Virus record (IMG/VR): IMGVR_UViG_2651869725_000022
Coordinates: 1-18,334 of that record
DNA: 18,334 nucleotides
Source: a virus
Taxonomy: Duplodnaviria; Heunggongvirae; Uroviricota; Caudoviricetes
Strand: one strand, 5' to 3'
The translations under genes and the position numbers were made by a program. This document shows positions 1,224 to 18,334 of this stretch, one piece after another; position 1 is the first letter of the stretch, and each line of letters starts with the position of its first letter. A model generated the notes under the pieces. That model made no database searches, was not told where the DNA came from, and was given only the letters and a program-made list of their open reading frames with translations.

Positions 1224-1242
1224 CAATTATCATCTCGATAAA

Positions 1243-3467: not shown

Positions 3468-3510
3468 TTAGCCCCCTCTTAATTGCTGTTGGTCCTCTCA
3501 GAACGAGGGG

Positions 3511-3540: not shown

Positions 3541-3557
3541 GGTGAGGTATAGTTTTT

Positions 3558-4154
3558 TTAAGATAAACTTTGATTGATATACTCATGACACCCAAAAATA
3601 AAGGCGTTTTGTGCATCAATAAATGACTTTTTTTCTTCCGGAGTAAAATACCCTTTTGTAAAACATACTTTTAGCGCTTTTTGAAGATCTGCCGTCAGGG
3701 TTATCAACTTACAACCTTCCTCATCAGGCCTTATTAATAGAAGTAATTTATTTTTACTTATTTCAGCGGCCTTTATTGGAACTTGAATCTCCTCAGGGAA
3801 AACACCCTTAGCCAATATATCCATATTCTTATTTCCGACCAGATGCCATTGCTCAAATGTGCTGGCCAACATAATTACGTCTGTCACATGCTCAGCGCCA
3901 GCAAAACGTATTTGTTGCGCCAATTCTTTATTAGTATTCAAGTGAGCCTGTAATGTGGCTAAGGCAAAATTTTCTTTGATTGCCCTGTATGCAACCCAAC
4001 CAGTTATTCCTGCGGCAATAACGCCTGCAAGAGCAGTAATGAGTGTTTCAAAAGGAAAGGAAGAACTGATTTCAATTGGCGGTAATTTTTCTATTACCAA
4101 GGTCAACTCGCCAGTAGTTTTTTCGAAAGCGTACGGTACGTTTTGCCAAGTCAT
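3558..4154 (-). CDS. Hypothetical membrane-anchored protein (198 aa); accessory gene between Q and the lysis cassette
   Basis: Strong RBS (AGGAGG 4 nt before the ATG at 4154). One predicted transmembrane helix (LITALAGVIAAGITGWVAYRAI) near the N-terminus, then a soluble domain of about 140 aa. Visibly more AT-rich than its neighbours and flanked by intrinsic terminators. No family recognised. Confidence 0.6.
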   Translation of the reverse strand: MTWQNVPYAFEKTTGELTLVIEKLPPIEISSSFPFETLITALAGVIAAGITGWVAYRAIKENFALATLQAHLNTNKELAQQIRFAGAEHVTDVIMLASTFEQWHLVGNKNMDILAKGVFPEEIQVPIKAAEISKNKLLLLIRPDEEGCKLITLTADLQKALKVCFTKGYFTPEEKKSFIDAQNAFIFGCHEYINQSLS

Positions 4155-4182
4155 GAAGCCTCCTGAGTTTCAGAGGAATCAT

Positions 4183-4208
4183 AACAAAAAAACCCGCTCA
4201 ATGGCGGG
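4183..4208 (-). terminator. Intrinsic terminator just downstream of Q (tR'-like position)
   Basis: Plus strand AAAAAAA-CCCGC-tcaatg-GCGGG; on the minus strand the stem is followed by seven Ts. Lies between the Q stop (4261) and the next start (4154), as tR' does in lambda. Confidence 0.5.
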
Positions 4209-4260
4209 CTCTTAATGTTGTGTTGCTCAGTTCGCTTTAACGTCCCGAGCCTACCACAAT

Positions 4261-4839
4261 TTAAGCACTTTCTTGCTCACTCTGCAACTTAAATCTGTCG
4301 CTATTTGTGCCGAATGCGTCACAAACTGGAGCGTACAGGATCGATTCTGCAAGACTTAGCCAAGTGTCAATGCGTCGACGACAGGTGATCAGCGGCCAGT
4401 CAGGATGTTTAGCCTGCAGTTCATTGGCCATCTGCAACTTGCTCTTACGAAGACGATACCGGTCAACAATCACGCTATAGAGCGATCGGTAGTCATCATT
4501 CATCAGTACTGAAGCAATGACACCGTCCACTAACAACCCTTCTTCATCTGAACAGAACGCCAGGCCGCTTTTATTTTTGCTGTTGAGAATTTCACGCAGG
4601 TACGCTTCAAGTTCAGGCTTGGTGATACCCGCTATCTTCATCCGGCGTAGCGCTTCATTGATAGCTGTCTTGGTGATTTTCCCGGATGCCAGAAGCTGGT
4701 TAAACATGTTTCCACCACTACCACCGCCGATATAAGACCAGCGGCCCCACATGCGCAACTTGCCTTGTATCCAGATACTTTCCAGAGTACGAAGGCGAAC
4801 CATTTCACCTGATTTGCCAACTTCAGAAGGATTAATCAT
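4261..4839 (-). CDS. Late-gene antitermination protein Q-like
   Basis: 192 aa. Position (end of nin region, directly upstream of terminator and lysis genes) plus recalled resemblance to Q-family antiterminators (LRMWGRWSY...GGGSGG region, Cys/His pairs near the C-terminus). Family assignment is from memory. Confidence 0.55.
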   Translation of the reverse strand: MINPSEVGKSGEMVRLRTLESIWIQGKLRMWGRWSYIGGGSGGNMFNQLLASGKITKTAINEALRRMKIAGITKPELEAYLREILNSKNKSGLAFCSDEEGLLVDGVIASVLMNDDYRSLYSVIVDRYRLRKSKLQMANELQAKHPDWPLITCRRRIDTWLSLAESILYAPVCDAFGTNSDRFKLQSEQESA

Positions 4840-4853
4840 TTAGCATTCTCCAC

Positions 4854-5849
4854 TTACGCCAGTACGCCTATTGCCAGCGCACGATCGATAAAACGAAATA
4901 TCAGCTCCAGCTGGGAGCCATACTTCTCTTCAAATGCCACGGTATCCGCATGCAGCTCGTCGTGATGCTTTCTGCACAAAGGCAACACAAAGAGGTAATG
5001 CGCTTTTGTACCCATTCCACCCTGACCGTGACCTATCAGGTGGTGGGGATCATCAGCAGGCTTTCCACAACATGCACACGGCTGTGTCTTAACCCAGCGC
5101 GTGTACTTTTCATTAACCCAGCGGCGACGTTTTGGGCGTAACATAAAAGACTCCGGCGACTCCGGATCCACTTTCAGCGCCAGCACCTTTTTTGCCTTAT
5201 CCTGGATGATGCTGGTGGCAGGAACCGAAGGCACAAGGTCACTTTCCCGGGTGACAGACGGCACAACAGGCTTCGGTAATCTCAGTGCCTTACGGGCTGC
5301 ACTTTCCGGTAAGGCACCCGCCAGGTCATTACGAATCAGCCACCAGCACAGTTCCGGCATTGTCACAGCGTGACTATCATCAAAACCGAGATCCCGACGC
5401 ACAACAGACAACACCCAGCGGGCACAGTTATCCGTTGCCATTGATTCCAGCCGTTCCGTGAACTGATCGCGCAGCTGGTTATCGCAGTGCCAGCACAGAC
5501 GGATTGCACCCGGCGCGTGTCGCATTGTGGTCATGTTCTCGCTGTGCCAGTCGGAATGAGGCCACTGGCAGCCTTTTTCACGAAGTAACCAGCTTTCAAG
5601 ACATTCCACGCCACCAGCACGACGGATCACTGCCTCATTGCGGAACACGGCCCGAACGGCAGGATCATCCGCCAGCGGTTGTGATGCCGCCGGAACAGCA
5701 CCACTGGCGAAAGATGAATAACGTTCCGGCTCAGGCTCCAGCAGGACACGCCCCTGCATAAACAGGGGCATCAGCTCTGAACCTGGTCTGAACAATACGA
5801 TCCCCATACGCGGGGCAATTTCAGGGGTCAGTAGTGCTCTCACGGTCAC
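4854..5849 (-). CDS. DUF968-family (YdfU-like) protein with C-terminal HNH-like Cys/His motif
   Basis: 331 aa; C-terminal CACCGKPADDPHHLIGHGQGGMGTKAHYLFVLPLCRKHHDELH resembles a zinc-binding HNH-type nuclease motif. I recall this architecture from YdfU-like prophage proteins in the nin region. Confidence 0.55.
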   Translation of the reverse strand: MTVRALLTPEIAPRMGIVLFRPGSELMPLFMQGRVLLEPEPERYSSFASGAVPAASQPLADDPAVRAVFRNEAVIRRAGGVECLESWLLREKGCQWPHSDWHSENMTTMRHAPGAIRLCWHCDNQLRDQFTERLESMATDNCARWVLSVVRRDLGFDDSHAVTMPELCWWLIRNDLAGALPESAARKALRLPKPVVPSVTRESDLVPSVPATSIIQDKAKKVLALKVDPESPESFMLRPKRRRWVNEKYTRWVKTQPCACCGKPADDPHHLIGHGQGGMGTKAHYLFVLPLCRKHHDELHADTVAFEEKYGSQLELIFRFIDRALAIGVLA

Positions 5850-5850
5850 C

Positions 5851-6648
5851 TCAATGAACGATATCGAGCAGCTTTAACAGCTCAGGGAATCGGGATTCGA
5901 AGAAATGCGGCTGCGTCTCGCGCGGATTTGCGGGACTGGTGATGTTCTTGCCGAACATGCAGCCTTTCGCTGTCAGCGACCAGAATTTTTTGATGTTGTT
6001 AATCGCGGTACGGCTGTATCGTTCGCGCTGCTCGACGATCCCCAGCTTCACCATCTGGTGATATGCCTGATTAGCCGTCAGGCGTATACCATACTGTTTC
6101 AGCAGTGCACTCAGTGACAGTGTCGGGCGACTTGAGCCATCGTGTGCATCAGCAGGAGCATCAATGGCATAGCGCGGTGCCAGATTCGGTAAGCCAACAG
6201 CCTCCTGGAGTTTCTGACAGGCACCAAGCACTGAAGAGTTAGACAGGTTTAATTCCCGGCGCATAAAGTCCAGCAGAATCACACCAGCCTGCATCTTGTC
6301 AGCAGCCTGTCCGGATAATTTTTCCGGTGCGCTGGTTACCATATCGAAAGTACGGATCACCTTCAGATGGAATGACGGGCTGATCCACATTGCATAGGCA
6401 TACACCAGTTCTTTGCAGACATACGTCCCCTGGTTATTTCCGCCACGAATAACGTTAACTGGCTCTATATTGACCGAGTTGCAAATCTGCAACTCGCTTA
6501 TTAAACGTTCAGTTTGCTCATTGCGGAGCCAGAATGCAGGCTTATGCTTATCCAGAGAACCGGCAGCCCTGTGCAGATCGTTCAGGCTGTAACGCCCATA
6601 AGCATCACGACGAACTTCAATACCATCAATGACCATCAGATTATTCAT
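5851..6648 (-). CDS. KilA-N domain protein (antirepressor-like)
   Basis: Preferred start is the ATG at 6648 (GAGGAGA RBS 8 nt upstream); the longer ORF to 6750 is probably read-through. N-terminal MNNLMVIDGIEVRRDAYGRYSLNDLHRAAG...GTYVCKELVYAYAMWISPSFHLKV matches the KilA-N signature. Confidence 0.65.
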   Translation of the reverse strand: MNNLMVIDGIEVRRDAYGRYSLNDLHRAAGSLDKHKPAFWLRNEQTERLISELQICNSVNIEPVNVIRGGNNQGTYVCKELVYAYAMWISPSFHLKVIRTFDMVTSAPEKLSGQAADKMQAGVILLDFMRRELNLSNSSVLGACQKLQEAVGLPNLAPRYAIDAPADAHDGSSRPTLSLSALLKQYGIRLTANQAYHQMVKLGIVEQRERYSRTAINNIKKFWSLTAKGCMFGKNITSPANPRETQPHFFESRFPELLKLLDIVH

Positions 6649-6667
6649 ACTTCGTTTCTCCTCTTGA

Positions 6668-7057
6668 TCAGGCGGCTGCACCCGCCGTTTTCTCGTACTT
6701 ACTGATAGTGATCTCGATCTTCCCTCCCGGGATAACCGGTCCCCACTCAACCAGCATTCTTTTCACCTGACTGTCGTCTTCCCACACACCCGCGTGGGTC
6801 AGGGCGTCAAACAGCGCCTTGTTATAGTTGTCCAGATCGCGGATCCGGTTATCCGGAGGAAACAACACGATCTCCACTGAAGCAGGTGCCGACGTTGGTT
6901 TCGGCAGGCGACGTAACTGCTCAACTATTGCTGCGCACGCCGCGCTCTGGAATTTGCGCCCCGCTGCGCTTATCAGACTCTTACCAGCAAACGCCCCTTT
7001 GTTGGGGTGTCGCCAGTACGTGTTCACGCTGGGCGGGAAAGGCAAGATCAGCTTCAT
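6668..7057 (-). CDS. rusA: Holliday junction resolvase RusA
   Basis: 129 aa starting MKLILPFPPSVNTYWRH; conserved RusA N-terminal motif and acidic catalytic residues (DLDNY, DALT). 4-bp overlap with the upstream gene. Confidence 0.85.
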   Translation of the reverse strand: MKLILPFPPSVNTYWRHPNKGAFAGKSLISAAGRKFQSAACAAIVEQLRRLPKPTSAPASVEIVLFPPDNRIRDLDNYNKALFDALTHAGVWEDDSQVKRMLVEWGPVIPGGKIEITISKYEKTAGAAA

Positions 7058-7380
7058 ACTTTCAGGCCCCTCTCATGTAACCAGTGGGCTGCACGCAGCC
7101 TGCCGTTTTCCTCACCGGCAAGCAGTGCGCGGATAATCCCGACCGCCTCGCTGTCGTCGTCCTTCACCGCGGTATGAAGCGTTATCCCCCGGGCCACGCC
7201 ACGCTTTATCGTGATGACGCCTTTTTTCTCCAGTGCACGAAGATGCTCTACCGCTGCATTCACTGAACGGTATCCCAGCATGGTTGCCACCTCCTGATTG
7301 GTTGGCGGAAAGCCACGCTCTTTCTGATAAGAAATCAGCATATCCAGCACCTGCTGCTGGCATTGAGTTAACGTCGTCAT
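7054..7380 (-). CDS. LexA N-terminal DNA-binding domain homolog lacking the S24 peptidase domain
   Basis: 108 aa; residues about 3-70 align closely by eye with the E. coli LexA winged-helix domain (LTxxQQxVxDxI...GxPPTxxExAxxLGxRSxNAAxEHLxALxxKGVIxIxxGxxRGIxL). No Ala-Gly cleavage site or Ser/Lys dyad follows. ATGA overlap with the Dam gene stop. Confidence 0.6.
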   Translation of the reverse strand: MTTLTQCQQQVLDMLISYQKERGFPPTNQEVATMLGYRSVNAAVEHLRALEKKGVITIKRGVARGITLHTAVKDDDSEAVGIIRALLAGEENGRLRAAHWLHERGLKV

Positions 7381-8030
7381 GCCGCCATCTCCCTGACCAG
7401 TTTTTCCGCCTGCTGGCGAACCTGCGCCAGAAACGCCTCACCACATACCTCAAGTTCATCGCGCCCGATGTAGCTGATTGCCGGTCCCTTCCAGGTCTTA
7501 TCGAAAACAGCAATAGCACCAGCGAAGAAAGCGCCTGTCGGCACCTGCTTCTCATCCTTCGGGATAAACCAGGCAGGCAGTTCAAAACCAATACGCCCGC
7601 GAATAAAAGCAATATGGTCTGCATCTTCCGGCCACCACACTTCGCTGGTGGCAGCTTTGATCAGGAAAACATAGCGCCCACCCTTATCACGCATAGCACT
7701 GGCATGTTTCATGATGTAACGCATGCCGGTGATGTATTGCCCCTCATGCTGACTGGCGCGGCTGTATGGGGGATTACCAAAGGCAGCCCCTTTAAGCTCC
7801 GCAAGACGTTCTGACCAGTCATGCGCCAGCGCGTTGTCTTCCGCCGTGTAATACGCAGCACATTTGGCGTTATCACCGTCAGTGAACAGATCCAGAACAA
7901 ACGGGCCAAACAGGGTGTTAATTCCCCAGAAAATGTTGTCCGGCGTGCGCCACTGATCGCCCACTTCCTTCAGTTCATGGGCTGGTTTGTTCCGCAGCTC
8001 CACCAGCGCCCGGCAATATTTATTACTCAT
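7377..8030 (-). CDS. Phage DNA N6-adenine methyltransferase (Dam-like)
   Basis: Preferred start at 8030 (MSNKYC...), overlapping the upstream stop as TAATG. Contains the catalytic NPPY motif (FGNPPYSR) typical of N6-adenine/N4-cytosine methyltransferases. Confidence 0.7.
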   Translation of the reverse strand: MSNKYCRALVELRNKPAHELKEVGDQWRTPDNIFWGINTLFGPFVLDLFTDGDNAKCAAYYTAEDNALAHDWSERLAELKGAAFGNPPYSRASQHEGQYITGMRYIMKHASAMRDKGGRYVFLIKAATSEVWWPEDADHIAFIRGRIGFELPAWFIPKDEKQVPTGAFFAGAIAVFDKTWKGPAISYIGRDELEVCGEAFLAQVRQQAEKLVREMAA

Positions 8031-8524
8031 TAAGCCCCCACGTAATTCCCTGACAGATACCACTCTTCACCCGATGCAGCGCGCTTGCTGCTTTTCCGTA
8101 AGCACCGCTCACGATGCGCCAGAAAATTGTTTCGTTCTGGCTGGGAGTGGCTTTCACGGAATGCCGCCATCCACACGGTTGCAGCACGACGAAATAAGCC
8201 TCTTGACTCCAGTTCTTCAGCCTGGCGGGTCAGGCACAAAATCACCCGGGGATCGTTAGTGCCGACATAGAAATTGCGCACAGGTCTGGTTTCACGAACT
8301 GGTTGTGGTTCCGGCTCCCGCGCTCTCTCAGTCAGGCGCGGGAAATGTCTGCGTGTATCCCCTTCACAACGGTGAGCCACAGGCCCACTCTGACGTAACT
8401 TGCTTGCTGACTGCAGTACGCGCTGCCGTGAGTAACCTGCAAAAGCATCCGCAATGTCTCCGGAAGTACACCCCGGATGGGCTTCAATGAATTTCTGAAC
8501 GTCATTCAAAAGACTCATGATCAC
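8030..8524 (-). CDS. Putative transcriptional regulator (PerC-like C-terminal motif)
   Basis: 164 aa; the C-terminal LESRGLFRRAATVWMAAF resembles the PerC-family signature as I recall it. Translationally coupled to the O-like gene (4-bp overlap) and the Dam gene. Family call is tentative. Confidence 0.4.
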   Translation of the reverse strand: MIMSLLNDVQKFIEAHPGCTSGDIADAFAGYSRQRVLQSASKLRQSGPVAHRCEGDTRRHFPRLTERAREPEPQPVRETRPVRNFYVGTNDPRVILCLTRQAEELESRGLFRRAATVWMAAFRESHSQPERNNFLAHRERCLRKSSKRAASGEEWYLSGNYVGA

Positions 8525-9462
8525 CCCCTGAATCCTGCCGGGATCTGGCTGTAGTCCACGTTGTCGTAACTGGATTTGAAGTACGGGTCTTCGCGTTTTT
8601 CGGTGTACGTGCTGACGGACGGCGATAAGCGCAGGGAAAGCTCATCCCATTTTTCCCGCAGCTTCGACGGGCTGAGCACGTTACGGCACCAGAACGGATC
8701 GCGGCTGACGCGGCTGTACATCTCGCAGATTTGTTTGTGAGTACGACCATCCTGCACACACATCAGGCGAATTTCGTTTGCCCAGGCTGTCCAGTTCGGT
8801 TCTTTGGGACGAACCACCTCGCCGTCACATTCGGCAGCCTGCTCGTACAGGGCGATGATTTTTTTCCAGAGCCACTGTGCGCAGGTCAAATCATCCTGCG
8901 TCCCCCACTGGCGCTTTTTAGGGCTGAATACAACCGCATCAGGATGGCGAGTTAAAAAATCCTGTTCAGCCGTCTGCGTGTCCGGTTGCGAAGCGTCCGG
9001 ACGAGAAGGTTTTTTATCTGACGGATCATGTTTTGATTTTACTGACGGATCCCCGCCAGATTCTGACGGGTGAAAACCCGCTTTTTTGCCAGATTTCGAC
9101 GCATCAAATTTTGACGGGTCAGATTTTGATGCGTCAGATTTTGACGGGTCAGAATCTGACAGTTGAGAAAATGCCGCTGCCTGAAGCTTCGCAACGTTAA
9201 GCTGATAAACATTCGACGCATTGCGGTTACCCTGGCGACGCGCCTTACGCGTTAACCAGCCTTCTGCTTCCAGCCGTGCGATAGCCGTTCTGACGGTACT
9301 CATCCCCGCGCCAATCTGACGGGCAATGGTTTCAATTGATGGCCAGCACACACCTTCGTCATTACTGAAATCAGCCAGGCGGGCCATAATTGCCACGCTG
9401 GATAACTTCATGCCTGATGCAGCGCAACCATCCCATACATAGCCGGTTAATTTAGTGCTCAT
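8521..9462 (-). CDS. Replication initiator, lambda O-like (HTH N-terminal domain, iteron-encoded linker, O-type C-terminal domain)
   Basis: 313 aa. The C-terminal segment (WGTQDDLTCAQW...NWTAWANEIRLMCVQDGRTHKQICEMYSRVSRDPFWCRNVLSPSKLREKWDELS) closely parallels the lambda O C-terminal domain (WGTAEDLTAAEW...NFAGWANDIRLMRERDGRNHRDMCVLFRWACQDNFWSGNVLSPAKLRDKWTQLE) from memory. The central low-complexity SDSDPSKSDASKSDPSKFDASKSG is encoded by direct repeats. Confidence 0.8.
   Translation of the reverse strand: MSTKLTGYVWDGCAASGMKLSSVAIMARLADFSNDEGVCWPSIETIARQIGAGMSTVRTAIARLEAEGWLTRKARRQGNRNASNVYQLNVAKLQAAAFSQLSDSDPSKSDASKSDPSKFDASKSGKKAGFHPSESGGDPSVKSKHDPSDKKPSRPDASQPDTQTAEQDFLTRHPDAVVFSPKKRQWGTQDDLTCAQWLWKKIIALYEQAAECDGEVVRPKEPNWTAWANEIRLMCVQDGRTHKQICEMYSRVSRDPFWCRNVLSPSKLREKWDELSLRLSPSVSTYTEKREDPYFKSSYDNVDYSQIPAGFRG
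9016..9162. repeat. Iteron array (candidate replication origin) inside the O-like gene
   Basis: At least eight copies of a T(C/T)TGAC(G/A)G core; the last five are spaced at exactly 15 bp (cores at 9096, 9111, 9126, 9141, 9156; unit approx GTCAGATTTTGACGG), with further copies at 9018, 9042 and 9063. Moderately AT-rich stretch on the 3' side (8940-9015). Mirrors ori-lambda architecture within O. Confidence 0.6.
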
Positions 9463-9471
9463 GACCGACCT

Positions 9472-9810
9472 CTATTTCCCTGAATTTACGACGAAACTGT
9501 TCGAGCGGGCTGAAGCACTCATGCTCATAGCCTTCGCGGAGGTAGATAACTCGTTGTGTTTCCGGCTCCCAACGAATGACTCTGACGGGCACTCCGTAGT
9601 GATCTTTGAACCAGCGGTTAACTTGTCGCAAAGGACTGTCTCCTTCTGCCGGTTGAAATCACCCACAGCCCACTCAGCAAAGCTGTGGGTTACAATTTCC
9701 CTGTCACCTGGTACATTTACTGCATAGCAATACTCCACCTTCGCTTTTCCACCCGGTACAGGAAGCGCAATCAGTTGCGAGCGACGGTAGTGTGTTGTTA
9801 AACTGTTCAT
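9472..9810 (-). CDS. Hypothetical protein (112 aa), translationally coupled
   Basis: ATG at 9810 overlaps the upstream stop (ATGA) and has GGAG 9 nt upstream. No family recognised. An antisense ORF (9455-9727, plus strand) occupies the same DNA, so the coding strand is not fully certain. Confidence 0.35.
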
Positions 9811-10358
9811 GCGTTAGTTTCTCCACAGTCACGACACGCCACGGCGCCCGGAGCTGCACACTCGCGGGCGTCACTACTTTCTGAAACGCAAAAGATTTTG
9901 TAGACCAGTGCTGCATGCTCCTGCAGCTTCGAAATTGAGAGGTACAGCTCATCGTTAATTGCTGTCTTCTCATGCGGTTCCACTACACCGTCTTCAATTG
10001 CTGAACGAATCTGTTTTGAATAACTGCCGATCTGTTCAATGACTTCCAGCAGGCGTTGGTTGATATCGGCGTTGTCCACATCCTCGACGTCAGGAAGAGA
10101 CACAAAGACGCCATTTGCAGACTGCGCCACAGCATCAGCAATGAAGTGAGTGCCACCAGCACGCTGTAAAACCATTGCCCATCCCAGCGGGAAAATCTGA
10201 TCGCCATCTGCACGAAGGCGGTTGAATAAAGCGTTTTCTGTTACATCGAGCCAGTCAGCCGCTTCAGCGTAACCACCCGGCAACGCCGCGATAGTTTTTC
10301 TGACAGCTTTCACATACCACTTAGGCTGTTTTTCTACTTTCCAGTGATGCTTACCCAC
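9807..10358 (-). CDS. CII-like regulatory protein with extended C-terminal domain
   Basis: Preferred start is the GTG at 10358 (AAGGAG 6 nt upstream); the longer ORF to 10463 would overlap cro. The segment [39 protein letters not shown] parallels the lambda CII HTH region (TEKTAEAVGVDKSQISRWKRDWIPKFSMLLAVLE) from memory. Sits between cro and O as cII does. Confidence 0.45.
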
Positions 10359-10380
10359 GGCTATCTCCTTAAAACTGTGG

Positions 10381-10629
10381 TTACTTTTCATCTGATGAAT
10401 CTTTAATCTTTTGAAAAATATCTGGACGTAATTTTTCTTTTGATATGCCAGTGGTCTTTTCAATGAATATCGAGAGCTTTGCAGGGGGACGCTTTTCTCT
10501 GTTCAACCAGTTCCAGACATGTTGTTGCTTTACTAAATGACCGCTGCTGGCTGTGAGCTTCCGAGCCAATTCTGATTGACCACCAGCCAGAGCGATTGCC
10601 TCCGATAAGGCTAATTGCTCAGGTGTCAT
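10381..10629 (-). CDS. Cro-like repressor (YdaS/Cro-type HTH)
   Basis: 82 aa, divergent from the cI-like gene across a 135-bp operator region; AAGGAG RBS 6 nt upstream of the ATG. HTH-like segment LSEAIALAGGQSELARKLTASSGHLVKQ. Confidence 0.6.
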   Translation of the reverse strand: MTPEQLALSEAIALAGGQSELARKLTASSGHLVKQQHVWNWLNREKRPPAKLSIFIEKTTGISKEKLRPDIFQKIKDSSDEK

Positions 10630-10764
10630 AGCTTTCTCCTTTTTAGGTAGTTAAGTTGTTACGAGTTGCAAGAATACAACATTAACAACTTTTATCACAA
10701 CTTTTAGGTGTTGGAAAGCTAAAACATAAAGTTGTAACCTCACCAAAAAAGAGAGGGATATGTT
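10630..10764. promoter_or_regulatory. Divergent operator/promoter region (OR analogue; pR towards cro, pRM towards cI)
   Basis: Intergenic region between divergent cro-like and cI-like genes. It carries at least five copies of the half-site AAGTTGT / ACAACTT (for example TTAAGTTGTTAC, TTAACAACTTTT, ATCACAACTTTT, AAAGTTGTAACC); the same motif recurs at the pL candidate. Confidence 0.55.
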
Positions 10765-11451
10765 GTGAAAACACTGGCAGAACGATTAAAGATAGGTAGA
10801 GAGAAAGCTGGCATGAGCCAAGCTCAACTAGCTGAAAAAATTGGACTTTCACAACAATCTGTAGCCAAAATAGAGAATGGCGAAACTCTACAACCGCGCA
10901 AAATTAAAGAAATTGCAAAAGTTTTAGGTGTATCACAAAAGTGGTTACAACTTGGTATTGAAGACAACGCATCCATACCTGATCTTGTTGTAAAAGAAGC
11001 AGAAAGCACCGCATTAGACCCCGATATTTTCGTAAACATCCCTGTTTTAGATGTCGAGTTATCGGCAGGTAATGGATGTCTGGCTGAAATAGTTGAATCA
11101 GCTATTGACTGGTTTCCGTTAAGAAGAGCAGATTTGAGAAAATCTGGCGTATGTGCATCTAATGCCAAGATCGTAAAAATATGGGGGAACAGTTTATTAC
11201 CGGTTCTCAATAATGGAGATCTTGTTGCCGTTGATATTTCTCAAACCGTTCCTATTCGTGATGGCGATCTTTATGCCATACGAGATGGTGTATTGCTAAG
11301 GGTTAAAATACTTATCAACTTACCTGACGGTGGCTTGATTCTTAGAAGCTTCAACAAAGATGAGTACCCAGATGAAATACTCACCTTTGAAGATAGACGA
11401 GCCAGAATTCATGTTATAGGTAGGGTATTCTGGTCATCGCGAACTTGGTAA
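10765..11451 (+). CDS. cI-type prophage repressor (HTH-XRE N-terminal domain plus S24 LexA-like autopeptidase domain)
   Basis: 228 aa starting at GTG 10765 (purine-rich RBS upstream). N-terminal HTH (MSQAQLAEKIGLSQQSVAKIENGE), candidate Ala-Gly cleavage site (LSAGNG), catalytic Ser (GNSL) and Lys (LRVK) in S24 arrangement. Confidence 0.85.
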   Translation: MKTLAERLKIGREKAGMSQAQLAEKIGLSQQSVAKIENGETLQPRKIKEIAKVLGVSQKWLQLGIEDNASIPDLVVKEAESTALDPDIFVNIPVLDVELSAGNGCLAEIVESAIDWFPLRRADLRKSGVCASNAKIVKIWGNSLLPVLNNGDLVAVDISQTVPIRDGDLYAIRDGVLLRVKILINLPDGGLILRSFNKDEYPDEILTFEDRRARIHVIGRVFWSSRTW

Positions 11452-12324
11452 TGCATCGAAAAGCATTTCTTCAGAAATAATTTTAAGTTTTGCACCATTA
11501 TCATCCCTATAAGATATAGCTTTTTCGATCTTCCTTCCGTGACTTGAGAATTTCCAATCACGGGAGGAAAGCGTCCCAATTACTAAAAAATCCAACTTTT
11601 GAGTAATTCCACTACTGATGTTCCCACCAGCATTTTTAATCAAATTTTCAACTACGGCTCTCTTTCCTGCAACAAAAGTGCCTGTAAGACAATAGGTTTT
11701 ACCCTCTAACTCTATCGAAGCCCCTACATCAATAGGCAGCCTGGTCGCCAAACCATCCACCACCCCACTTTCCAAGTCACATCCTGTGAAGTCTACTAAT
11801 GCCTTATGTAGAGTTAAACTCTCATCTTCAGTAATAACACCATCTTTAAGAATTTCCTTTACAAGTGCATAAAGTTTTTTTCCTGGGTAGTTGTTCTTCA
11901 AAGCTCCATTTTGCTCAAGCCACCAATTAAGATATCTTATTTCTTCTTGAGTTAAGTTCCGATCAGCAATTAATCCTTTACATAGTCCATTAAGTAAATG
12001 GACATCTACATCCTTGGAGTAAAAATCAATTTCAGGGATATCAAGAATTTCCCTCTGTATTTGGAGAAGGCTATTTTTAAGGTCATCACGTTCTTCTGAT
12101 GTGATTATTCCATCCGCAAGAATATCCGACACCCGTGCTGATAGACTTTTTATAACTCCATTATTGATAATCTGCTTTGCTTCAAGTAACCATGTATCTA
12201 AGTAAAGAACCTCCTCTTCACGGACAACTCCATCTGCAATGATTCCATCAATGATGCTAATCAAGTTAGCAAATAACTTGTCCCGGTTCTGTGTGTAATT
12301 AAAAGCGTAAAGCGCGTCTTCCAT
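11434..12324 (-). CDS. Accessory protein: four TerB-like helical repeats followed by a C-terminal BRCT domain
   Basis: 296 aa; GGAGG RBS 4 nt upstream of the ATG at 12324. Four repeats built on an acidic core (IADGVVREEEVLYL; LADGIITSEERDDL; IADRNLTQEEIRYL; LKDGVITEDESLTL). The C-terminal GKTYCLTGTF...GGNISSGITQKLDFLVIG...ISEEMLFDAL matches the BRCT pattern as seen in NAD-dependent ligase C-termini. AT-rich, convergent with cI and overlapping its 3' end by 18 bp. Confidence 0.65.
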   Translation of the reverse strand: MEDALYAFNYTQNRDKLFANLISIIDGIIADGVVREEEVLYLDTWLLEAKQIINNGVIKSLSARVSDILADGIITSEERDDLKNSLLQIQREILDIPEIDFYSKDVDVHLLNGLCKGLIADRNLTQEEIRYLNWWLEQNGALKNNYPGKKLYALVKEILKDGVITEDESLTLHKALVDFTGCDLESGVVDGLATRLPIDVGASIELEGKTYCLTGTFVAGKRAVVENLIKNAGGNISSGITQKLDFLVIGTLSSRDWKFSSHGRKIEKAISYRDDNGAKLKIISEEMLFDALPSSR

Positions 12325-12380
12325 ACAACCTCCTTTTTTGATAATCCTTGCACTCCTTGGCTACTCGTTCAAACCACATA

Positions 12381-12430
12381 AAGTTGTTGACAACATTCAA
12401 AACCACAATTAAATTACAACTTAAAGGTGT
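12381..12430 (+). promoter_or_regulatory. pL-like early-left promoter with operator half-sites (OL analogue)
   Basis: TTGACA at 12387-12392, 17-bp spacer, TAAATT at 12410-12415. It overlaps the imperfect palindrome AAAGTTGTTGACAACATT and a further ACAACTT copy, the same half-site as in the OR region. Confidence 0.45.
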
Positions 12431-12525
12431 TAAAACGACGAACAGGCAGGACGCCCACGAAGTAGCCGCCGGTGGCGTATGAATGACCGGATGATTCGTT
12501 AAATACTATGTGTAAGAGAGCGCAA

Positions 12526-12729
12526 ATGAACCGTTATTTCACATGCTCGTTTTGTGGCGCAAACGAGCTGCAGGCAAAAAAAATCATCGCCAAAGGCGGA
12601 AAAGATGAAGTTGCTATCTGCTCTGAGTGCGTAGTCTTGTGTGTCGGGGCATTAATCAATATCAGCACAACTATTCAGTTCACACCAAATGAGAATGCGC
12701 CTTTAGATGCGCGGAAATCTGGAGGTTAA
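12526..12729 (+). CDS. Small protein with ClpX-type C4 zinc-finger (ClpX N-domain-like)
   Basis: Preferred start is the ATG at 12526 (MNRYFTCSFCG...). CSFCGANELQAKKIIAKGGKDEVAICSECVVLC parallels the ClpX zinc-binding domain ([30 protein letters not shown]) from memory. First gene downstream of the pL candidate. Confidence 0.55.
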   Translation: MNRYFTCSFCGANELQAKKIIAKGGKDEVAICSECVVLCVGALINISTTIQFTPNENAPLDARKSGG

Positions 12730-12737
12730 AGAACAAA

Positions 12738-13013
12738 ATGAAAGTCCAGATTTTAAACAATAGTGGTGAAGTCGTTTGGTCATACGACATAGCCGCTCCT
12801 GTAGATCAGAGCGGCGATAGCTGGACCAATGGGAAACATCAGATTATGGCTGGAGTTGTATTCTCTTTACGCCGTGCTTTGGAACAGGCTGAAGTATTTC
12901 CATCAGACCCTGAATGGAAATGGCCTTTTTCTATTTGTCCAAATTCGGAGAGTACATTTCAGAAAATTGGTCAGAAAGTCGCACTCGAAGAGCATCAGCC
13001 AACTGTTTCCTGA
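12738..13013 (+). CDS. Hypothetical protein (91 aa)
   Basis: GGAGG RBS 9 nt upstream of the ATG. No family recognised. Its 3' end overlaps the convergent minus-strand ORF by about 83 bp. Confidence 0.4.
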   Translation: MKVQILNNSGEVVWSYDIAAPVDQSGDSWTNGKHQIMAGVVFSLRRALEQAEVFPSDPEWKWPFSICPNSESTFQKIGQKVALEEHQPTVS

Positions 13014-13176
13014 TTTTTTCAGGTAGCTCGTCGGCATCGCAGAAACAACAACGCTCGATCATGTTGAAAGCCGATTCGTAGAACTGTTTCTGCTGAGTGT
13101 CGCTGAGACAGGAAAAGAGCGACGTTACGATGATTTTATTAATTGCATTATCAAGTTCTTTTTCATCAAAAGTCAT
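12931..13176 (-). CDS. Hypothetical protein (81 aa), antisense-oriented within the early-left operon
   Basis: AGGA RBS about 7 nt upstream of the ATG at 13176. Helical-looking sequence with a CCFC motif. Convergent with and overlapping the 91-aa ORF. Confidence 0.4.
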   Translation of the reverse strand: MTFDEKELDNAINKIIVTSLFSCLSDTQQKQFYESAFNMIERCCFCDADELPEKIRKQLADALRVRLSDQFSEMYSPNLDK

Positions 13177-13430
13177 TTGATTTTCCTTTTATGTATACGG
13201 ACTTAAAAGGATACCACCGAGCCTGAAGTGGTGAAAAGACAGGCACATAACAGCTAAGTATTTTCAACCAGAGAGAATCCTTAGCGTTGTGGTGAATGCG
13301 GCTCAGCGCACGCGGGTTAAGGTTGAGGCTGACAGTCGACCTTCTGTGGATACCCACCCGCCAGGTGTGCAACCTTCGCCAGGCACCGGGAGGCACCCGG
13401 CACCACAACTTTATGCTGTGTGTAGTCTTG

Positions 13431-13478
13431 GCGGTACCAGCTTGTACCCTTGCTTCCGGCTGGTACCGCTCTTTTTAC
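13431..13478 (+). terminator. Candidate intrinsic terminator inside the early-left operon (tL-like)
   Basis: Perfect 11-bp stem GCGGTACCAGC (13431-13441) / GCTGGTACCGC (13459-13469) with a 17-nt loop, followed by CTCTTTTTAC. The loop is large for a canonical terminator, hence moderate confidence. Confidence 0.45.
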
Positions 13479-13613
13479 AAAACAGAGAAGAGCATCACCG
13501 GACGACGGGCTCATAACCCAATCCACCCGGGCGGCTGCCACCGCAGGTGTTCTTCTCTGTTTTGTGGAGAAACCAACCGACCTTGCAGGGTCGATATGAT
13601 TAGGAGCAGCAAA

Positions 13614-14048
13614 ATGGCTAGCGAACGCAGTACTGATGTGCAGGCATTTATCGGGGAGCTGGACGGCGGCGTATTTGAAACCAAAATCGGCGCAGTTCTC
13701 AGTGAAGTCGCTTCCGGTGTGATGAACACGAAAACCAAAGGTAAGGTCTCACTCAACCTGGAAATCGAACCGTTTGATGAGAACCGTGTGAAAATCAAAC
13801 ACAAACTCTCATATGTTCGCCCGACTAACCGCGGGAAAATTTCCGAAGAAGACACCACCGAAACGCCGATGTATGTCAATCGCGGTGGTCGCCCGACTAA
13901 CCGCGGGAAAATTTCCGAAGAAGACACCACCGAAACGCCGATGTATGTCAATCGCGGTGGTCGCCTGACTATTCTGCAGGAAGACCAGGGACAATTACTG
14001 ACTCTTGCCGGTGAACCTGACGGAAAACTCCGCGCAGCAGGTCATTAA
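13614..14048 (+). CDS. Hypothetical protein (144 aa) containing a duplicated 24-aa segment
   Basis: Preferred start is the ATG at 13614 with AGGAG 7 nt upstream; the upstream part of the long ORF 13296-14048 is GC-rich and lacks an RBS. Contains the tandem repeat PTNRGKISEEDTTETPMYVNRGGR twice. Confidence 0.55.
   Translation: MASERSTDVQAFIGELDGGVFETKIGAVLSEVASGVMNTKTKGKVSLNLEIEPFDENRVKIKHKLSYVRPTNRGKISEEDTTETPMYVNRGGRPTNRGKISEEDTTETPMYVNRGGRLTILQEDQGQLLTLAGEPDGKLRAAGH
13821..13964. repeat. Perfect 72-bp tandem duplication (2 copies) inside the coding sequence
   Basis: Copy 1 at 13821-13892 and copy 2 at 13893-13964 are identical base for base. A degenerate partial third start (GCCTGACTATTC) follows. 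Confidence 0.9.
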
Positions 14049-14113
14049 TATCGTTCTTAATTAACTGATTATTTATCTCATCACTGAATATCTTTATATA
14101 GTGAGGACTTATT

Positions 14114-14938
14114 ATGTCTCAGAACTTAGACGCAACCGCAATTAATCAAATCCATGCTCTTATTTCTGCTCAGGGTGTTAATGAAATTATCAGTAAGATT
14201 GGTGCCGATGCTGTGGCATTGCCTGAGAATTTCCGCATTCATGATCTGGAAAAATTTAATTTAAATCGCTTCCGTTTCCGTGGTGCGCTTTCCACTGCCA
14301 GCATCGATGACTTTACCCGTTATTCTAAAGATCTTGCAGATGAAGGCACCCGCTGCTTTATCGATGCCGATAATATGCGAGCCGTCAGTGTGCTTAACCT
14401 GGGTACTATTGATGAACCAGGTCACGCAGATAACACCGCCACTCTCAAACTGAAAAAGACAGCACCGTTCTCTGCTCTGTTGTCTGTTAATGGCGAGCGT
14501 AACTCCCAGAAGTCACTGGCAGAATGGATTGAAGACTGGGCCGACTACCTTGTGGGCTTTGATGCTAATGGTGACGCCATTCAGGCAACCAAAGCGGCTG
14601 CGGCGATCCGTAAAATCACAATTGAAGCGAACCAGACCGCTGATTTTGAAGATAATGACTTCAGCGGCAAACGCTCCCTGATGGAGTCTGTCGAAGCGAA
14701 GACCAAAGACATTATGCCAGTGGCATTTGAATTTAAATGCGTTCCGTTTGAAGGTCTGAAAGAACGTCCGTTTAAATTACGCCTCAGCATTATCACTGGC
14801 GATCGTCCTGTACTGGTTCTGCGCATTATTCAGCTGGAAGCGGTGCAGGAAGAAATGGCTAACGAATTTCGTGATCTGCTTGTTGAGAAATTCAAAGACA
14901 GCAAAGTAGAAACCTTTATTGGTACTTTCACCGCCTGA
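14114..14938 (+). CDS. YfdQ-like (DUF2303-type) prophage protein
   Basis: 274 aa with an AGTGAGGA RBS. Length and gene neighbourhood (followed by an HD-domain YfdR-like gene and a 120-aa YfdS-like gene) match the CPS-53-type yfdQ-yfdR-yfdS block as I recall it. Family call is from memory. Confidence 0.5.
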
Positions 14939-15065
14939 TTTCATTACTGCAAATGCCCCTGCGGGGGCATTTATGGAAACGTAATTTACTCAATAATCGC
15001 CGGATGGTGATGGATTCTTTTTACCAGAATTCAGCGCGGTGCAGCGCATATACGTGGAGAACAAA

Positions 15066-15602
15066 ATGTCATTTATCAAAACTTTTTCTGGGAAGCATTT
15101 TTATTATGACAGGATAAATAAAGACGACATCGATATTAACGATATCGCGGTTTCCCTTTCAAATATCTGTCGCTTTGCCGGTCATCTTTCGCACTTCTAC
15201 AGCGTCGCCCAACATGCGGTTCTTTGCAGCCAGCTGGTGCCGCAGGAATTTGCTTTTGAAGCGTTAATGCATGATGCAACAGAAGCGTATTGCCAGGACA
15301 TTCCCGCACCACTGAAACGCCTTCTTCCTGACTATAAACGGATGGAAGAAAAAATAGACGCCGTAATCCGTGAGAAATACGGGTTACCACCGGTTATGAG
15401 TACGCCCGTGAAATATGCCGATCTCATCATGCTGGCAACCGAACGCCGCGATCTCGGGCTTGATGATGGCTCTTTCTGGCCTGTACTGGAAGGTAGCCCG
15501 GCAACAGAGATGTTCAACGTGATTCCACTGGCTCCAGGCCATGCCTACGGGATGTTTATGGAACGCTTTAACGAATTATCGGAGTTACGCAAATGCGCAT
15601 GA
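15066..15602 (+). CDS. HD-domain phosphohydrolase (YfdR-like 5'-deoxynucleotidase)
   Basis: Preferred start MSFIKTF at 15066 (178 aa). HD-domain His...His-Asp pattern (AQHAVLCS ... ALMHDATEAY) and a later Asp consistent with metal-dependent phosphohydrolases. Confidence 0.6.
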   Translation: MSFIKTFSGKHFYYDRINKDDIDINDIAVSLSNICRFAGHLSHFYSVAQHAVLCSQLVPQEFAFEALMHDATEAYCQDIPAPLKRLLPDYKRMEEKIDAVIREKYGLPPVMSTPVKYADLIMLATERRDLGLDDGSFWPVLEGSPATEMFNVIPLAPGHAYGMFMERFNELSELRKCA

Positions 15603-15955
15603 ATGTTTTCGAAATGGAAGGATTTCTTCGCGGGAAATGTGTACCGCGAGATCTGAAAGTGAATGAAACGGATGCTGAATACCTGGTGCGTAAATTTGAT
15701 GCGCTTGAAGCTAAATGTGCAGCACTGGAAAACAAAGTAATACCAGTGTCAGCTGAACTGCCGCCAGCGAATGAAAGTGTTCTGTTATTTGATGCTAATG
15801 GAGAAGGCTGGCTGATTGGCTGGCGTTCTCTCTGGTATACATGGGGGCAAAAAGAAACCGGAGAATGGCAGTGGACATTTCAGGTCGGGGACATTGAAAA
15901 CGTCAACATCACTCACTGGGCAGTAATGCCAAAAGCACCGGAGGCTGGAGCATAA
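15593..15955 (+). CDS. YfdS-like (DUF551-type) protein
   Basis: 120 aa; start overlaps the upstream stop. C-terminal Trp-rich segment (WLIGWRSLWYTWGQKETGEWQW). Call based on size and synteny. Confidence 0.45.
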   Translation: MRMNVFEMEGFLRGKCVPRDLKVNETDAEYLVRKFDALEAKCAALENKVIPVSAELPPANESVLLFDANGEGWLIGWRSLWYTWGQKETGEWQWTFQVGDIENVNITHWAVMPKAPEAGA

Positions 15956-16764
15956 TGACCACATTTACCGATAAAGAACTGATTAAAGAAATCAAAGAAC
16001 GAATCAGCAGCATGGACGTGCGAGACAATGTTGAGCGCCGTGCTTATGAAATTGCTCTGGCATCGCTGGAAGAGGATCCGGTGGCATGGCTGCATTCAGA
16101 CAATGGCTTAGGTATTCCGGCAATAACCAGGAGTAAAAACATTGCTGACAGTTGGTTATCAAAGGGCTGGTATGTTCAGCCGCTATATATAGCCAAGCCA
16201 GTGCCGGTGGTGCCAGATGCTCGTCCGTCTTTAAATAATGGCATAGTCGGTTTTGATGAAGGCTGGAACGCCTGCCGCGCTGCCATGCTCTATGGTGCCG
16301 TACCTGCAAGCCAGGCTTACAAGTTGCCACAAACGCAGTTTAAACAGGTTGCTGACCTCTACGAAATGCAATTTGATGACGGTCGCACTTGTGCCTTTCA
16401 CACTGATGCGCAAAAGGCTGTGCAATGGCTTCAGGCGTGCGACGGAAACAGGGTTCAGGAATACGTTAAGCTGGAACGATTGCAGAACGCACTGTCTGGC
16501 AACTCTCCGGTAACTCCGGATGGTTGGGTTATGGTGCCGAAGAGACTAACAGCCGAGAACGGCGCTAAGGGGGCGCTATCCGGTGAATTTTCAGAAACTA
16601 CGTTTATAAGCTGCCTGGAATGCTTTGGCGATGATGATTGCGATACCTGTGACGGGAGCGGACGTATTGAAATTAAAGTGCCAGTCACGTGGTCGACCAT
16701 AAAATCTATCTGGGATAAAGGTATCGAGTATTTTGCAGCAAAACCATCACAAGAGGTGAAGTGA
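15955..16764 (+). CDS. Hypothetical protein with C-terminal Cys cluster (putative zinc ribbon)
   Basis: 269 aa; start overlaps the previous stop (TAATG). C-terminal CLECFGDDDCDTCDGSG. Confidence 0.45.
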   Translation: MTTFTDKELIKEIKERISSMDVRDNVERRAYEIALASLEEDPVAWLHSDNGLGIPAITRSKNIADSWLSKGWYVQPLYIAKPVPVVPDARPSLNNGIVGFDEGWNACRAAMLYGAVPASQAYKLPQTQFKQVADLYEMQFDDGRTCAFHTDAQKAVQWLQACDGNRVQEYVKLERLQNALSGNSPVTPDGWVMVPKRLTAENGAKGALSGEFSETTFISCLECFGDDDCDTCDGSGRIEIKVPVTWSTIKSIWDKGIEYFAAKPSQEVK

Positions 16765-17336
16765 TGAACAACTTAATGATCGACCTTGAGACGATGGGGA
16801 AAAATAAGGATGCACCGATCGTTTCCATTGGCGCGGTGTTCTTCACTCCAGAAACCGGAGACATCGGACAAGAATTCTATACGGTTGTTAGCCTGGAAAG
16901 TGCTATGGGGCAAGGAGCTACACCTGACGGCGATACCATCCTGTGGTGGTTGAAACAAAGCCCTGAAGCACGAGCTGCAATCTGTATTGATGATACTTTG
17001 TCGATCAGCGATGCTCTCTCAGAACTAAATCATTTCATTAACCGGCACGCAGACAATACGAAATATTTAAAAGTCTGGGGTAACGGAGCCACCTTCGACA
17101 ACGTAATTTTACGTGGAGCTTATGAGCGAGCAGGACAAATCTGCCCGTGGGCATACTGGAATGACCACGATGTACGCACGATCGTTACGCTTGGGCGTTC
17201 CATCGGATTCGACCCCAAAATGGACATGCCTTTCGATGGCGAACGGCACAACGCCCTGGCTGATGCCCGTCATCAGGCAAAATATGTTTCCGCTATCTGG
17301 CAGAAATTAATTCCTGCCACCAGCACAGAATTATGA
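16761..17336 (+). CDS. 3'-5' exonuclease, DEDD (DnaQ-like) family
   Basis: 191 aa; N-terminal MIDLETMG (Exo I motif with Asp/Glu), central WGNGATFDNVIL and C-terminal HNALADARHQAKY (Exo III His-x4-Asp) fit a DEDDh exonuclease. Confidence 0.6.
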   Translation: MMNNLMIDLETMGKNKDAPIVSIGAVFFTPETGDIGQEFYTVVSLESAMGQGATPDGDTILWWLKQSPEARAAICIDDTLSISDALSELNHFINRHADNTKYLKVWGNGATFDNVILRGAYERAGQICPWAYWNDHDVRTIVTLGRSIGFDPKMDMPFDGERHNALADARHQAKYVSAIWQKLIPATSTEL

Positions 17337-17372
17337 TTTTCCCGGGTGCAGCCGGTTTTGATGGAGAAAATT

Positions 17373-17654
17373 ATGAACACCTTGTTTTTACTGATGGCTG
17401 AATTCAATACCCCTAACATTGAACTCTCAGCAGTTAGCCAAAAGTACTTTGGCATGAGTCCAGCCACGGCAGAAGCAAAAGCAAACGCTTGTAAGTTGCC
17501 CGTTCCAACATATCGCATCGGCACATCACAAAAAGCAAAACGTTGCATCAATATTCAGGATCTTGCGGAATACATAGACAAAAGACGAGAAGAAGGACGT
17601 ATCGAGTGGGAACAGGTCAGAACAAGCAAACAGAAGGGCAAAGAACATCACTAA
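17373..17654 (+). CDS. Small DNA-binding protein, excisionase-like (PrtN/Xis-type)
   Basis: Preferred start at 17373 (GGAGAAAA RBS). The segment KLPVPTYRIGTSQKAKRCINIQDLAEYIDKRRE resembles winged-helix excisionase/PrtN-type proteins as I recall them. Last gene of the plus-strand operon, followed by a terminator. Tentative. Confidence 0.4.
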   Translation: MNTLFLLMAEFNTPNIELSAVSQKYFGMSPATAEAKANACKLPVPTYRIGTSQKAKRCINIQDLAEYIDKRREEGRIEWEQVRTSKQKGKEHH

Positions 17655-17660
17655 ATAAAA

Positions 17661-17690
17661 AACCCGCCTAAAGGCGGGTTTTCAAAAAGC
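17661..17690. terminator. Bidirectional intrinsic terminator between convergent genes
   Basis: AACCCGCC-taaa-GGCGGGTT hairpin, flanked by an A-run upstream and TTTCAAAAA downstream, so it can serve both strands. Confidence 0.6.
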
Positions 17691-17701
17691 ACCAGCTATG
17701 A

Positions 17702-17875
17702 TCATGCTGCTTTGCGACGACGAAGCTTACCCTGCTGCTCTTTACCAGAGACAGTAGCGTGAGTGAACGCATTAGGAGCAGCCTTCATCAGAACTTCAAC
17801 AGCAGCACCCATACCTGCGAATGCTTTCATTGTGTCGAACTTAACCTGTGGCTTGGTTGCTTTTTGATCTTCCAT
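17702..17875 (-). CDS. Small hypothetical protein (57 aa), absent from the supplied ORF track
   Basis: Hand translation of the minus strand gives MEDQKATKPQVKFDTMKAFAGMGAAVEVLMKAAPNAFTHATVSGKEQQGKLRRRKAA, with AGGAG 7 nt upstream of the ATG at 17875 and a stop at 17702-17704 next to the bidirectional terminator. Confidence 0.4.
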   Translation of the reverse strand: MEDQKATKPQVKFDTMKAFAGMGAAVEVLMKAAPNAFTHATVSGKEQQGKLRRRKAA

Positions 17876-17914
17876 AGAAAACTCCTGAAGTTATACCGAA
17901 ACAATTCCTGTTGT

Positions 17915-18334
17915 TTACTCATCATCAATAGATGATACGCAATATTTATTTTTAAATTTAAGGTTCTTTGGCGTAACTTCATCAGAGATATCAAAACCGT
18001 CCAGAATTCTATTGAATGTAGCTTCTGGCATATCATCATGAACAGAAATCTCACCCGATCGCTGCTTTCTAACCATGTTATCCACTCGCCAAATTATAGC
18101 TTCAGCGTAAACAACATAACTTGGATGCTTGATAAAGCGATGATCACCAGAATTCAAGACGCAAGACGGATCGTGGGGGACACCATCCTTGATACTAGAA
18201 ATATTAACAACTAAAACACAATAACAATCGTTAACGGGGTAATAAACAGGATCATTACAAATCACATGAAGATGATTGCATGGCCCAGTTGGGGCAAGCA
18301 CAGTTCCTTTCCTGTATGGCTGATAATCCGTCAT
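17915..18334 (-). CDS. Hypothetical protein (at least 139 aa; ATG coincides with the window end, may extend further)
   Basis: ORF on the minus strand in a visibly AT-rich region. Cys/His-rich (CNHLHVICNDP, CYC). No family recognised. Confidence 0.35.
   Translation of the reverse strand: MTDYQPYRKGTVLAPTGPCNHLHVICNDPVYYPVNDCYCVLVVNISSIKDGVPHDPSCVLNSGDHRFIKHPSYVVYAEAIIWRVDNMVRKQRSGEISVHDDMPEATFNRILDGFDISDEVTPKNLKFKNKYCVSSIDDE

Follow-up and report, generated by a model that had tools for sequence, protein, structure and literature searches.

The window analysed here is an 18,334-nucleotide stretch of a Caudoviricetes virus (IMG/VR record IMGVR_UViG_2651869725_000022, positions 1 to 18,334), a lambdoid phage whose immunity region carries, next to its cI-like repressor gene, a gene for a 296-residue protein with a repetitive N-terminal half and a C-terminal BRCT domain. 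Judged by full-length homology and shared domain order, this protein is a member of the K139 Orf2 family (PHROG 3989). An earlier, sequence-only reading of the window had presented the gene as an undescribed system. This was overstated: it is a homologue of the named orf2 of phage K139, falls in PHROG 3989 and is annotated in RefSeq as a BRCT protein, and it therefore belongs to a known, mechanistically uncharacterised family. New here are the rejection of a TerB label for the N-terminal half, the recognition of a duplicated four-helix unit without a solved structural relative, the large size of the family, its fixed position beside cI and co-divergence with it, a predicted PRM-like promoter (PRM, promoter of repressor maintenance), and the reuse of the module in defence-type proteins. 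As to function, we give about an even chance to the reading in which the lysogen expresses the protein as a factor of exclusion or defence, with a BRCT domain that would bind phosphate groups or DNA ends.

The window protein is identical to Escherichia coli WP_000389078.1, and the exact gene occurs in 47 of 5426 complete E. coli genomes (~1%), where its RefSeq name is only 'BRCT domain-containing protein'. Relatives of 68-82% identity are found in prophages of Serratia, Citrobacter, Klebsiella, Enterobacter, Salmonella and Cronobacter, and a second tier of 30-40% identity in Vibrio, Aliivibrio, Aeromonas, Alteromonas and many marine Gammaproteobacteria. An exhaustive search over 50%-identity representatives returned at least 2857 clusters at E ≤ 1e-3, with 1596 at E ≤ 1e-10. 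No near-identical DNA was found in the phage collection. The match to phrog_3989, a family of 'unknown function', spans positions 2-295 of 296 (E 1.5e-128).

K139 Orf2 (NP_536630.1) aligns with 95% of the protein at 33% identity (E 1e-38). The two share an architecture of two helical units plus BRCT, a similar length (301 residues in K139) and a place next to cI in the immunity region. They differ in genomic setting: K139 is P2-like and the phage of the window lambdoid, and orf2 is annotated inside the left-promoter (PL) lysogenic operon cI-orf2-glo-int, co-directional with cI and followed by glo and int, whereas the window gene is convergent with cI, has no glo-like neighbour and has its own predicted PRM-like promoter at the left operator (OL). 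In their abstract, Nesper et al. (1999, J Bacteriol 181:2902) reportedly describe K139 Orf2 as involved in preventing superinfection and Glo as taking part in exclusion. We found nothing on the role of orf2 in the other K139 literature examined, no published mechanism for the K139 Orf2 phenotype, and nothing relevant in literature on BRCT with prophage, antiphage or defence, on PDC-S48, or on TerB with BRCT.

The gene, the parts of its product and its immediate surroundings are as follows:

11434..12324, minus strand: coding sequence of the 296-residue repeat+BRCT protein (K139 Orf2 family, PHROG 3989), with an ATG start
12040..12324, minus strand: helical unit 1 (residues 1-95), four helices, with D-x6-E loops D31/E38 and D71/E78 and a net charge of -9
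11770..12039, minus strand: helical unit 2 (residues 96-185), a duplicate of unit 1, with D121/E128 and D161/E168 and a net charge of -6
11713..11769, minus strand: conserved Gly-rich linker (residues 186-204), inside FTGCDLESGVVDGLATRLPID
11452..11712, minus strand: BRCT domain (residues 205-291), with invariant T/S214, G215, R222, R255 and K265
12329..12335, minus strand: Shine-Dalgarno sequence AAGGAGG, 4 nt ahead of the ATG of the BRCT gene
10765..11451, plus strand: cI-like repressor (HTH_3, E 1.4e-15; Peptidase_S24, E 8.9e-15), convergent with the BRCT gene

Much of what the sequence-only reading had said of this locus was borne out, namely the 296-residue frame, its immunity-region location, its convergence with cI with 3' ends overlapping by exactly 18 bp, and its own strong ribosome-binding site. 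The gene had also been called more AT-rich than its neighbours. It is so relative to the window (GC 0.379 vs 0.483), but cI (0.399) and the entire immunity region (10400-12400) are low in GC too, so that AT-richness is a property of the region and not of the BRCT gene alone. The BRCT gene lies between cI and OL/PL, in the slot that rexAB occupies in lambda, and in the orientation opposite to cI.

The N-terminal half consists of four acidic repeats (R1 ADGVVREEEVLYL, R2 ADGIITSEERDDL, R3 ADRNLTQEEIRYL and R4 KDGVITEDESLTL), as had been claimed, and they are present beyond chance. In a BLASTP comparison residues 1-95 are 39% identical to residues 96-185 (E 1e-12), and the D, together with the E seven residues on, is invariant in all four repeats across an alignment of 54 relatives (31-100% identity). 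The half is, however, better described as a tandem duplication of a two-repeat, four-helix unit of ~90 residues than as four separate repeats. It is strongly acidic (net charge -15 in the window protein, family median -21), and sequence-profile search found no relative of solved structure for it.

The further claim that these repeats are TerB/DjlA-N-like did not hold. What they share with the TerB/DjlA N-terminal domain is a short helix-loop-helix motif whose D-G-x5-E spacing equals that of the ADG...E motif of TerB; 10 of the 54 relatives gave sub-threshold Pfam TerB matches (best E 0.0016; E ~0.002-0.06 over 27-33 residues only), and weak EF-hand matches would allow metal binding. The likeness stops at this ~30-residue motif. 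The window protein had no match to TerB (PF05099) at E ≤ 1 in a Pfam search, the positive control DjlA scoring 34.9 bits against the same model; hhalign against TerB gave 0.7% probability, and a structural test of the protein found no TerB-like three-dimensional fold. With neither profile nor structural similarity significant, TerB/DjlA homology was rejected, and it is very improbable that the protein joins its BRCT domain to a sensor of metal or stress of the TerB type (tellurite-resistance/DjlA-N-like). The D-G-V-V-x-x-x-E helix-loop-helix motif of the repeats is also borne by a CII/YmfL-like regulator encoded at 9807-10463 on the minus strand of the window (Phage_CP76, E 2e-13); homology of the repeats to the CII/YmfL C-terminus was dropped, the likeness being at motif level only (13% probability).

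The BRCT domain, expected at about residues 205-290, is genuine. PF00533 matches residues 206-290 with 29 bits against a gathering score of 21.3 (E 1.3e-6) and is also matched by 52 of the 54 relatives, and the window protein has the BRCT alpha/beta fold. The top sequence matches of residues 198-265 are the RFC1 p140 BRCT and LigA BRCT models. T/S214, G215, R222, R255 and K265, all invariant in the 54 relatives, align with the TG...R...K residues of RFC1, which contact a DNA 5' phosphate. By these residues and matches the domain is a basic BRCT of LigA/RFC1 type. Beyond the shared T-G...R...K/R residues, the family differs from LigA and RFC1 p140 in its unrelated N-terminal partner domains and in a family-specific segment, SSRDW-x-FSSHGRKIEKA. 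Source records of relatives carry names such as 'NAD-dependent DNA ligase' and 'DNA polymerase', and LigA and Pol III epsilon models do match the BRCT domain through their C-terminal portions, as would be expected of a fragment of a DNA ligase or repair enzyme. These matches are, however, limited to BRCT and reach 20-30 bits against cutoffs of 369-1051, for which reason the record names were discarded, and domain search of the window protein returned no adenylation, OB-fold or polymerase domain. Catalytic ligase or polymerase identity is thus ruled out by domain content, and we regard the fragment explanation as extremely improbable.

Linkage to cI was scored at 80 viral and 10 genome loci of the enterobacterial clade with a hidden Markov model of S24-type repressors. 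An S24-type cI lies immediately downstream of the BRCT gene, and convergent with it, at 80/80 viral and 10/10 genome loci, so that its homologues do recur beside cI in other prophages, a point that the sequence-only reading had raised. The 3' overlap of 9-18 bp is retained from Escherichia to Providencia and Proteus, cI identity is tracked by that of the BRCT protein from 100 down to 54%, and the pairing in E. coli is about 1:1 (cI allele in 48 genomes, BRCT gene in 47). Moreover, the BRCT-cI-cro block is constant across prophages whose flanking genes differ. Adjacency at all 90 loci, co-divergence and the constant block therefore indicate that, in the enterobacterial clade, the gene belongs permanently to an immunity module that is itself mosaic and is not a freely exchanged moron, which makes its earlier description as a moron doubtful in this clade. 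P2-like prophages of Aeromonas and Aliivibrio have the order S24-type cI, BRCT gene, one variable gene, integrase, in which the variable gene of Aeromonas encodes a 232-residue protein and that of Aliivibrio a K+ channel, glo having this place in K139; PADLOC gave no match for any of these three. Stutzerimonas phage PG1 carries a short form of the BRCT gene two genes after an S24 repressor.

The BRCT gene and the divergent early-left genes are separated by a gap of 183 bp, in which, and in the cI-cro gap at the right operator (OR), we identified the following elements:

12387..12415, plus strand: strong PL-like promoter TTGACA-17-TAAATT, divergent from the BRCT gene and directed toward the early-left genes
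12344..12352, minus strand: candidate extended -10 TGcAAGGAT, predicted, with T, G, A, A, A and T invariant in 10 diverse loci
12367..12372, minus strand: candidate -35 TTGAAC, with a 17-nt variable spacer before the -10
12373..12387, no strand assigned: operator-like site ACAACTTTATGTGGT, abutting the candidate -35 and the counterpart of the OR site at 10697-10711
12416..12430, no strand assigned: a further operator-like palindrome at OL, reading ACACCTTTAAGTTGT on the minus strand and immediately downstream of the PL -10
10697..10740, plus strand: PRM side of OR, with operator ACAACTTTTAGGTGT, -35-like TTGGAA and -10-like TAACCT, collinear with the region upstream of the BRCT gene

The half-site ACAACTT is common to the two gaps, and ACAACTTW occurs eight times in the window against 1.4 expected, with six of the eight occurrences inside these gaps. 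When the upstream regions of ten loci, with BRCT proteins 69-100% identical, were aligned, the invariant elements on the BRCT strand were ACAACTTTATGTGGT, the -35-like TTTGA and the extended -10 TG-AA--AT; the 17-nt spacer varies freely, and the -10 is followed by an A-rich leader and then the Shine-Dalgarno sequence. The segment upstream of cI (ACAACTTTTAGGTGT, TTGGAA, TAACCT and, as in the BRCT segment, a CAAAAAAG-GAGG leader) is collinear with that upstream of the BRCT gene, and the score of this alignment was reached by only 1 of 2000 shuffles. Given a predicted start ~7 nt past the -10, the operator would be centred at about -43, and lambda cI bound at OR2 activates PRM from about that position. 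These features suggest that the BRCT gene may have a PRM-like promoter at OL and be expressed with cI in the lysogen, which would be a functional equivalent of the K139 operon arrangement. Upstream of the candidate promoter lies a terminator-like hairpin (12442-12458, minus strand), and the block around it, GGCGGCTACTTCGTGGGCGTCCTGCCTGTTCG (~12440-12480), is kept in six of the ten diverse loci; on the plus strand, this block may alternatively form a structure within the PL leader.

Many copies of the family are chromosomal and lie in bacterial islands outside prophages. No S24-type cI was present within ~4 kb at 27 of 29 diverse genome loci, and the non-prophage loci have hypervariable neighbours, none of them universally conserved. 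Standalone copies directly follow a defence-type HerA (E 3e-135) and a Lamassu LmuB (E 3e-165); a further copy adjoins a PDC-S37/Hhe-type helicase (E 1.5e-149), and another a KAP NTPase together with a resolvase. The remaining neighbours are housekeeping genes. The HerA and LmuB loci come from two metagenome-assembled genomes (L098 and L099, BRCT gene at 4001-4860 in each) and, because the flanking genes c7 and c8 are common to both, represent one hotspot with swapped systems. At a further locus (L107, 3248-8873), co-oriented genes encode a K+ channel-like protein, a BRCT-family protein and a PDC-S37/Hhe-type DUF4011 helicase, the class of helicase to whose C-terminus the BRCT module is fused in P0351.

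Fusions of the module are of several kinds. In P0351 (2042 residues) the partner is a helicase-nuclease of PDC-S37/Hhe/MkoA type; in P0306 and P0336 a DEDDh exonuclease stands N-terminal to the repeat+BRCT module, and P0279 and P0324 carry LigA-type HhH+BRCT tails. PDC-S48, a PADLOC candidate, corresponds to the fusion with the exonuclease. Its model is matched throughout by fused relatives such as P0336 (positions 18-379, E 4e-33), whereas the window protein matches model positions 239-377 of 411 only (E 2.4e-7). It resembles PDC-S48 in its helical repeat plus BRCT module; unlike P0306 and P0336, however, it has no match to RNase_T/DEDDh, and it is without the exonuclease domain that makes up the first ~180 positions of the model. 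Because the match is partial, the window protein has the module in common with PDC-S48 without belonging to it.

The K+ channel-like protein (~240 residues; TVGYGD filter, S4-like helix rich in arginine) is encoded next to the BRCT-family gene, and co-oriented with it, in five loci, upstream in two and downstream in three. This pairing is a minority arrangement, and the channel found no support as a general partner of the family. The sensor-plus-channel design of RexA/RexB of lambda is echoed in these five loci. The window gene is like rexAB in its slot between cI and OL and, probably, in being expressed in the lysogen, and unlike it in being single, opposite to cI and without a membrane partner. 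Scans of PADLOC, where PDC-S48 was the sole hit, and of Pfam and PHROG gave no match to the Rex family, the presence of Rex models in each library being unconfirmed.

How might such a protein act? On the reading we favour, the lysogen would make it as a cytoplasmic protein, and it would interfere there with phages that superinfect. From the OL operator, cI would activate or permit the weak promoter of the BRCT gene, and the protein would consequently be made together with cI. Its BRCT pocket would engage phage DNA, whether incoming or replicating, at a nick or terminus that bears a phosphate, and the acidic bundle would serve in regulation or in the binding of partners. The solo protein might itself cap DNA ends or nicks and so block cos sealing or replication, or it might recruit a host effector; in relatives, the effector would be supplied by the fusion or by a neighbouring gene. 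The homology to K139 Orf2, the linkage to cI, the promoter-like conservation, the type of the BRCT domain and the occurrence of the module in defence contexts would all be consistent with exclusion. The suggestion of the sequence-only reading that this is a lysogen-expressed exclusion or sensor gene likewise fits the lysogenic operon of K139 Orf2, the relatives in defence islands and the fusions of the module to defence-type effectors. A bolder proposal, which we consider possible while leaning against it, is that the two-bundle+BRCT module is a portable sensor of DNA ends or nicks used in several defence designs (exonuclease fusion, helicase-nuclease fusion, pairing with a K+ channel), and that its solo prophage form would be a Rex-like factor of exclusion, which cI turns on from a second promoter, PRM-like and located at OL.

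Several observations weigh against an exclusion role. The solo protein has no effector or enzyme domain, its only conserved partner in the clade is cI, and such strict co-inheritance with cI is atypical of exchangeable defence cargo. Both PDC-S48 and PDC-S37 are unvalidated candidates, and the window protein covers 139 of the 411 PDC-S48 positions. None of 80 metagenomic relatives of the channel had a BRCT-family gene within 2.5 kb, a weak test given their 26-41% identity. Furthermore, the promoter and its cI dependence are predicted from sequence only, and ligand binding by the BRCT domain is deduced from conserved residues together with the contacts of RFC1.

The linkage to cI would also be explained if the protein were an accessory of the lysogeny switch with no action on other phages, working with S24-type cI by tuning its RecA-stimulated self-cleavage, as Hex of phage 434 does, or by passing a DNA-damage signal on to induction. 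The adjacency at 90/90 enterobacterial loci with its 9-18 bp overlap, the co-divergence, the 1:1 pairing with the cI allele in E. coli, the place that it has, second after cI, in the operon of P2-like prophages whose third gene varies, and the predicted PRM-like promoter all agree with such a role, and BRCT domains are typical of DNA-damage signalling and central to it in eukaryotes. However, the 27 of 29 diverse genome loci without a nearby S24-type cI indicate that the protein works without cI; cI-free copies adjoin defence systems, and the fusion partners of the module are nucleases and helicases rather than domains related to repressors. We therefore consider this alternative unlikely, though not negligibly so.

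Counter-defence or host takeover is a further alternative, in which the protein, either a defence sensor copied without its effector or an acidic mimic of DNA joined to a DNA-end binder, would shield phage ends and nicks from such host systems as Lamassu, RecBCD or LigA, or titrate these. It would account for the lack of a catalytic domain in a protein whose relatives bear a DEDDh exonuclease or a helicase-nuclease and for the acidity of the N-terminal half, and one standalone copy does adjoin a Lamassu LmuB. A statistical association has, moreover, been reported between K139 prevalence and the condition of the Lamassu-type ddmABC locus in Vibrio cholerae (PMC13171446). The association nevertheless runs opposite to that expected, since this 2026 Nature study found degradation of ddmABC to go with lower K139 prophage prevalence, for a cause it left unexplained (PMC13171446). 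The lysogenic operon of K139 and the PRM-like promoter in the window point to expression in the lysogen rather than in early infection, and the many chromosomal island copies outside prophages also speak against counter-defence, which we judge quite unlikely.

Some other features of the window deserve mention. The first gene after the PL-like promoter (12508-12729, plus strand) encodes a 73-residue ClpX-type C4 zinc finger (PF06689, E 1.4e-10); as it is without the ATPase domain, its product could be a ClpX mimic or adaptor. Two opposite-strand frames, 12931-13176 (minus) and 12738-13013 (plus), overlap by 83 bp, and both have strong full-length PHROG matches (phrog_3311, E 3e-55, and phrog_3195, E 8e-64), RefSeq annotating the plus-strand one only. 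A 72-bp tandem duplication at 13817-13971 (2.2 copies, 98% match) lies within the frame at 13296..14048 on the plus strand and duplicates the peptide RPTNRGKISEEDTTETPMYVNRGG; the matching region in E. coli MS1679 is annotated in RefSeq as a frameshifted pseudogene adjoining yfdP. RefSeq treats the early-left 3'-5' exonuclease gene at ~16692-17264 of the window (7061-7633 of L001) as a pseudogene that contains an internal stop.

To our knowledge, BRCT domains have no assigned role in phage exclusion. If the exclusion role is correct, a common prophage gene, present also in many prophages of Serratia, Citrobacter, Klebsiella, Salmonella, Providencia, Vibrio and Aeromonas, would add a BRCT-based principle of recognition to bacterial antiphage biology. 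It would also give a function to the module common to PDC-S48 and the Hhe/PDC-S37-like helicase fusions, and would account for the superinfection phenotype reportedly described for K139 in 1999. Should the module further prove to be a portable sensor, it would be the first BRCT-based antiphage sensor in bacteria and would represent a new wiring of an accessory gene to the immunity switch. The predicted PRM-like promoter at OL offers a directly testable idea of how accessory genes may be co-regulated in immunity regions.

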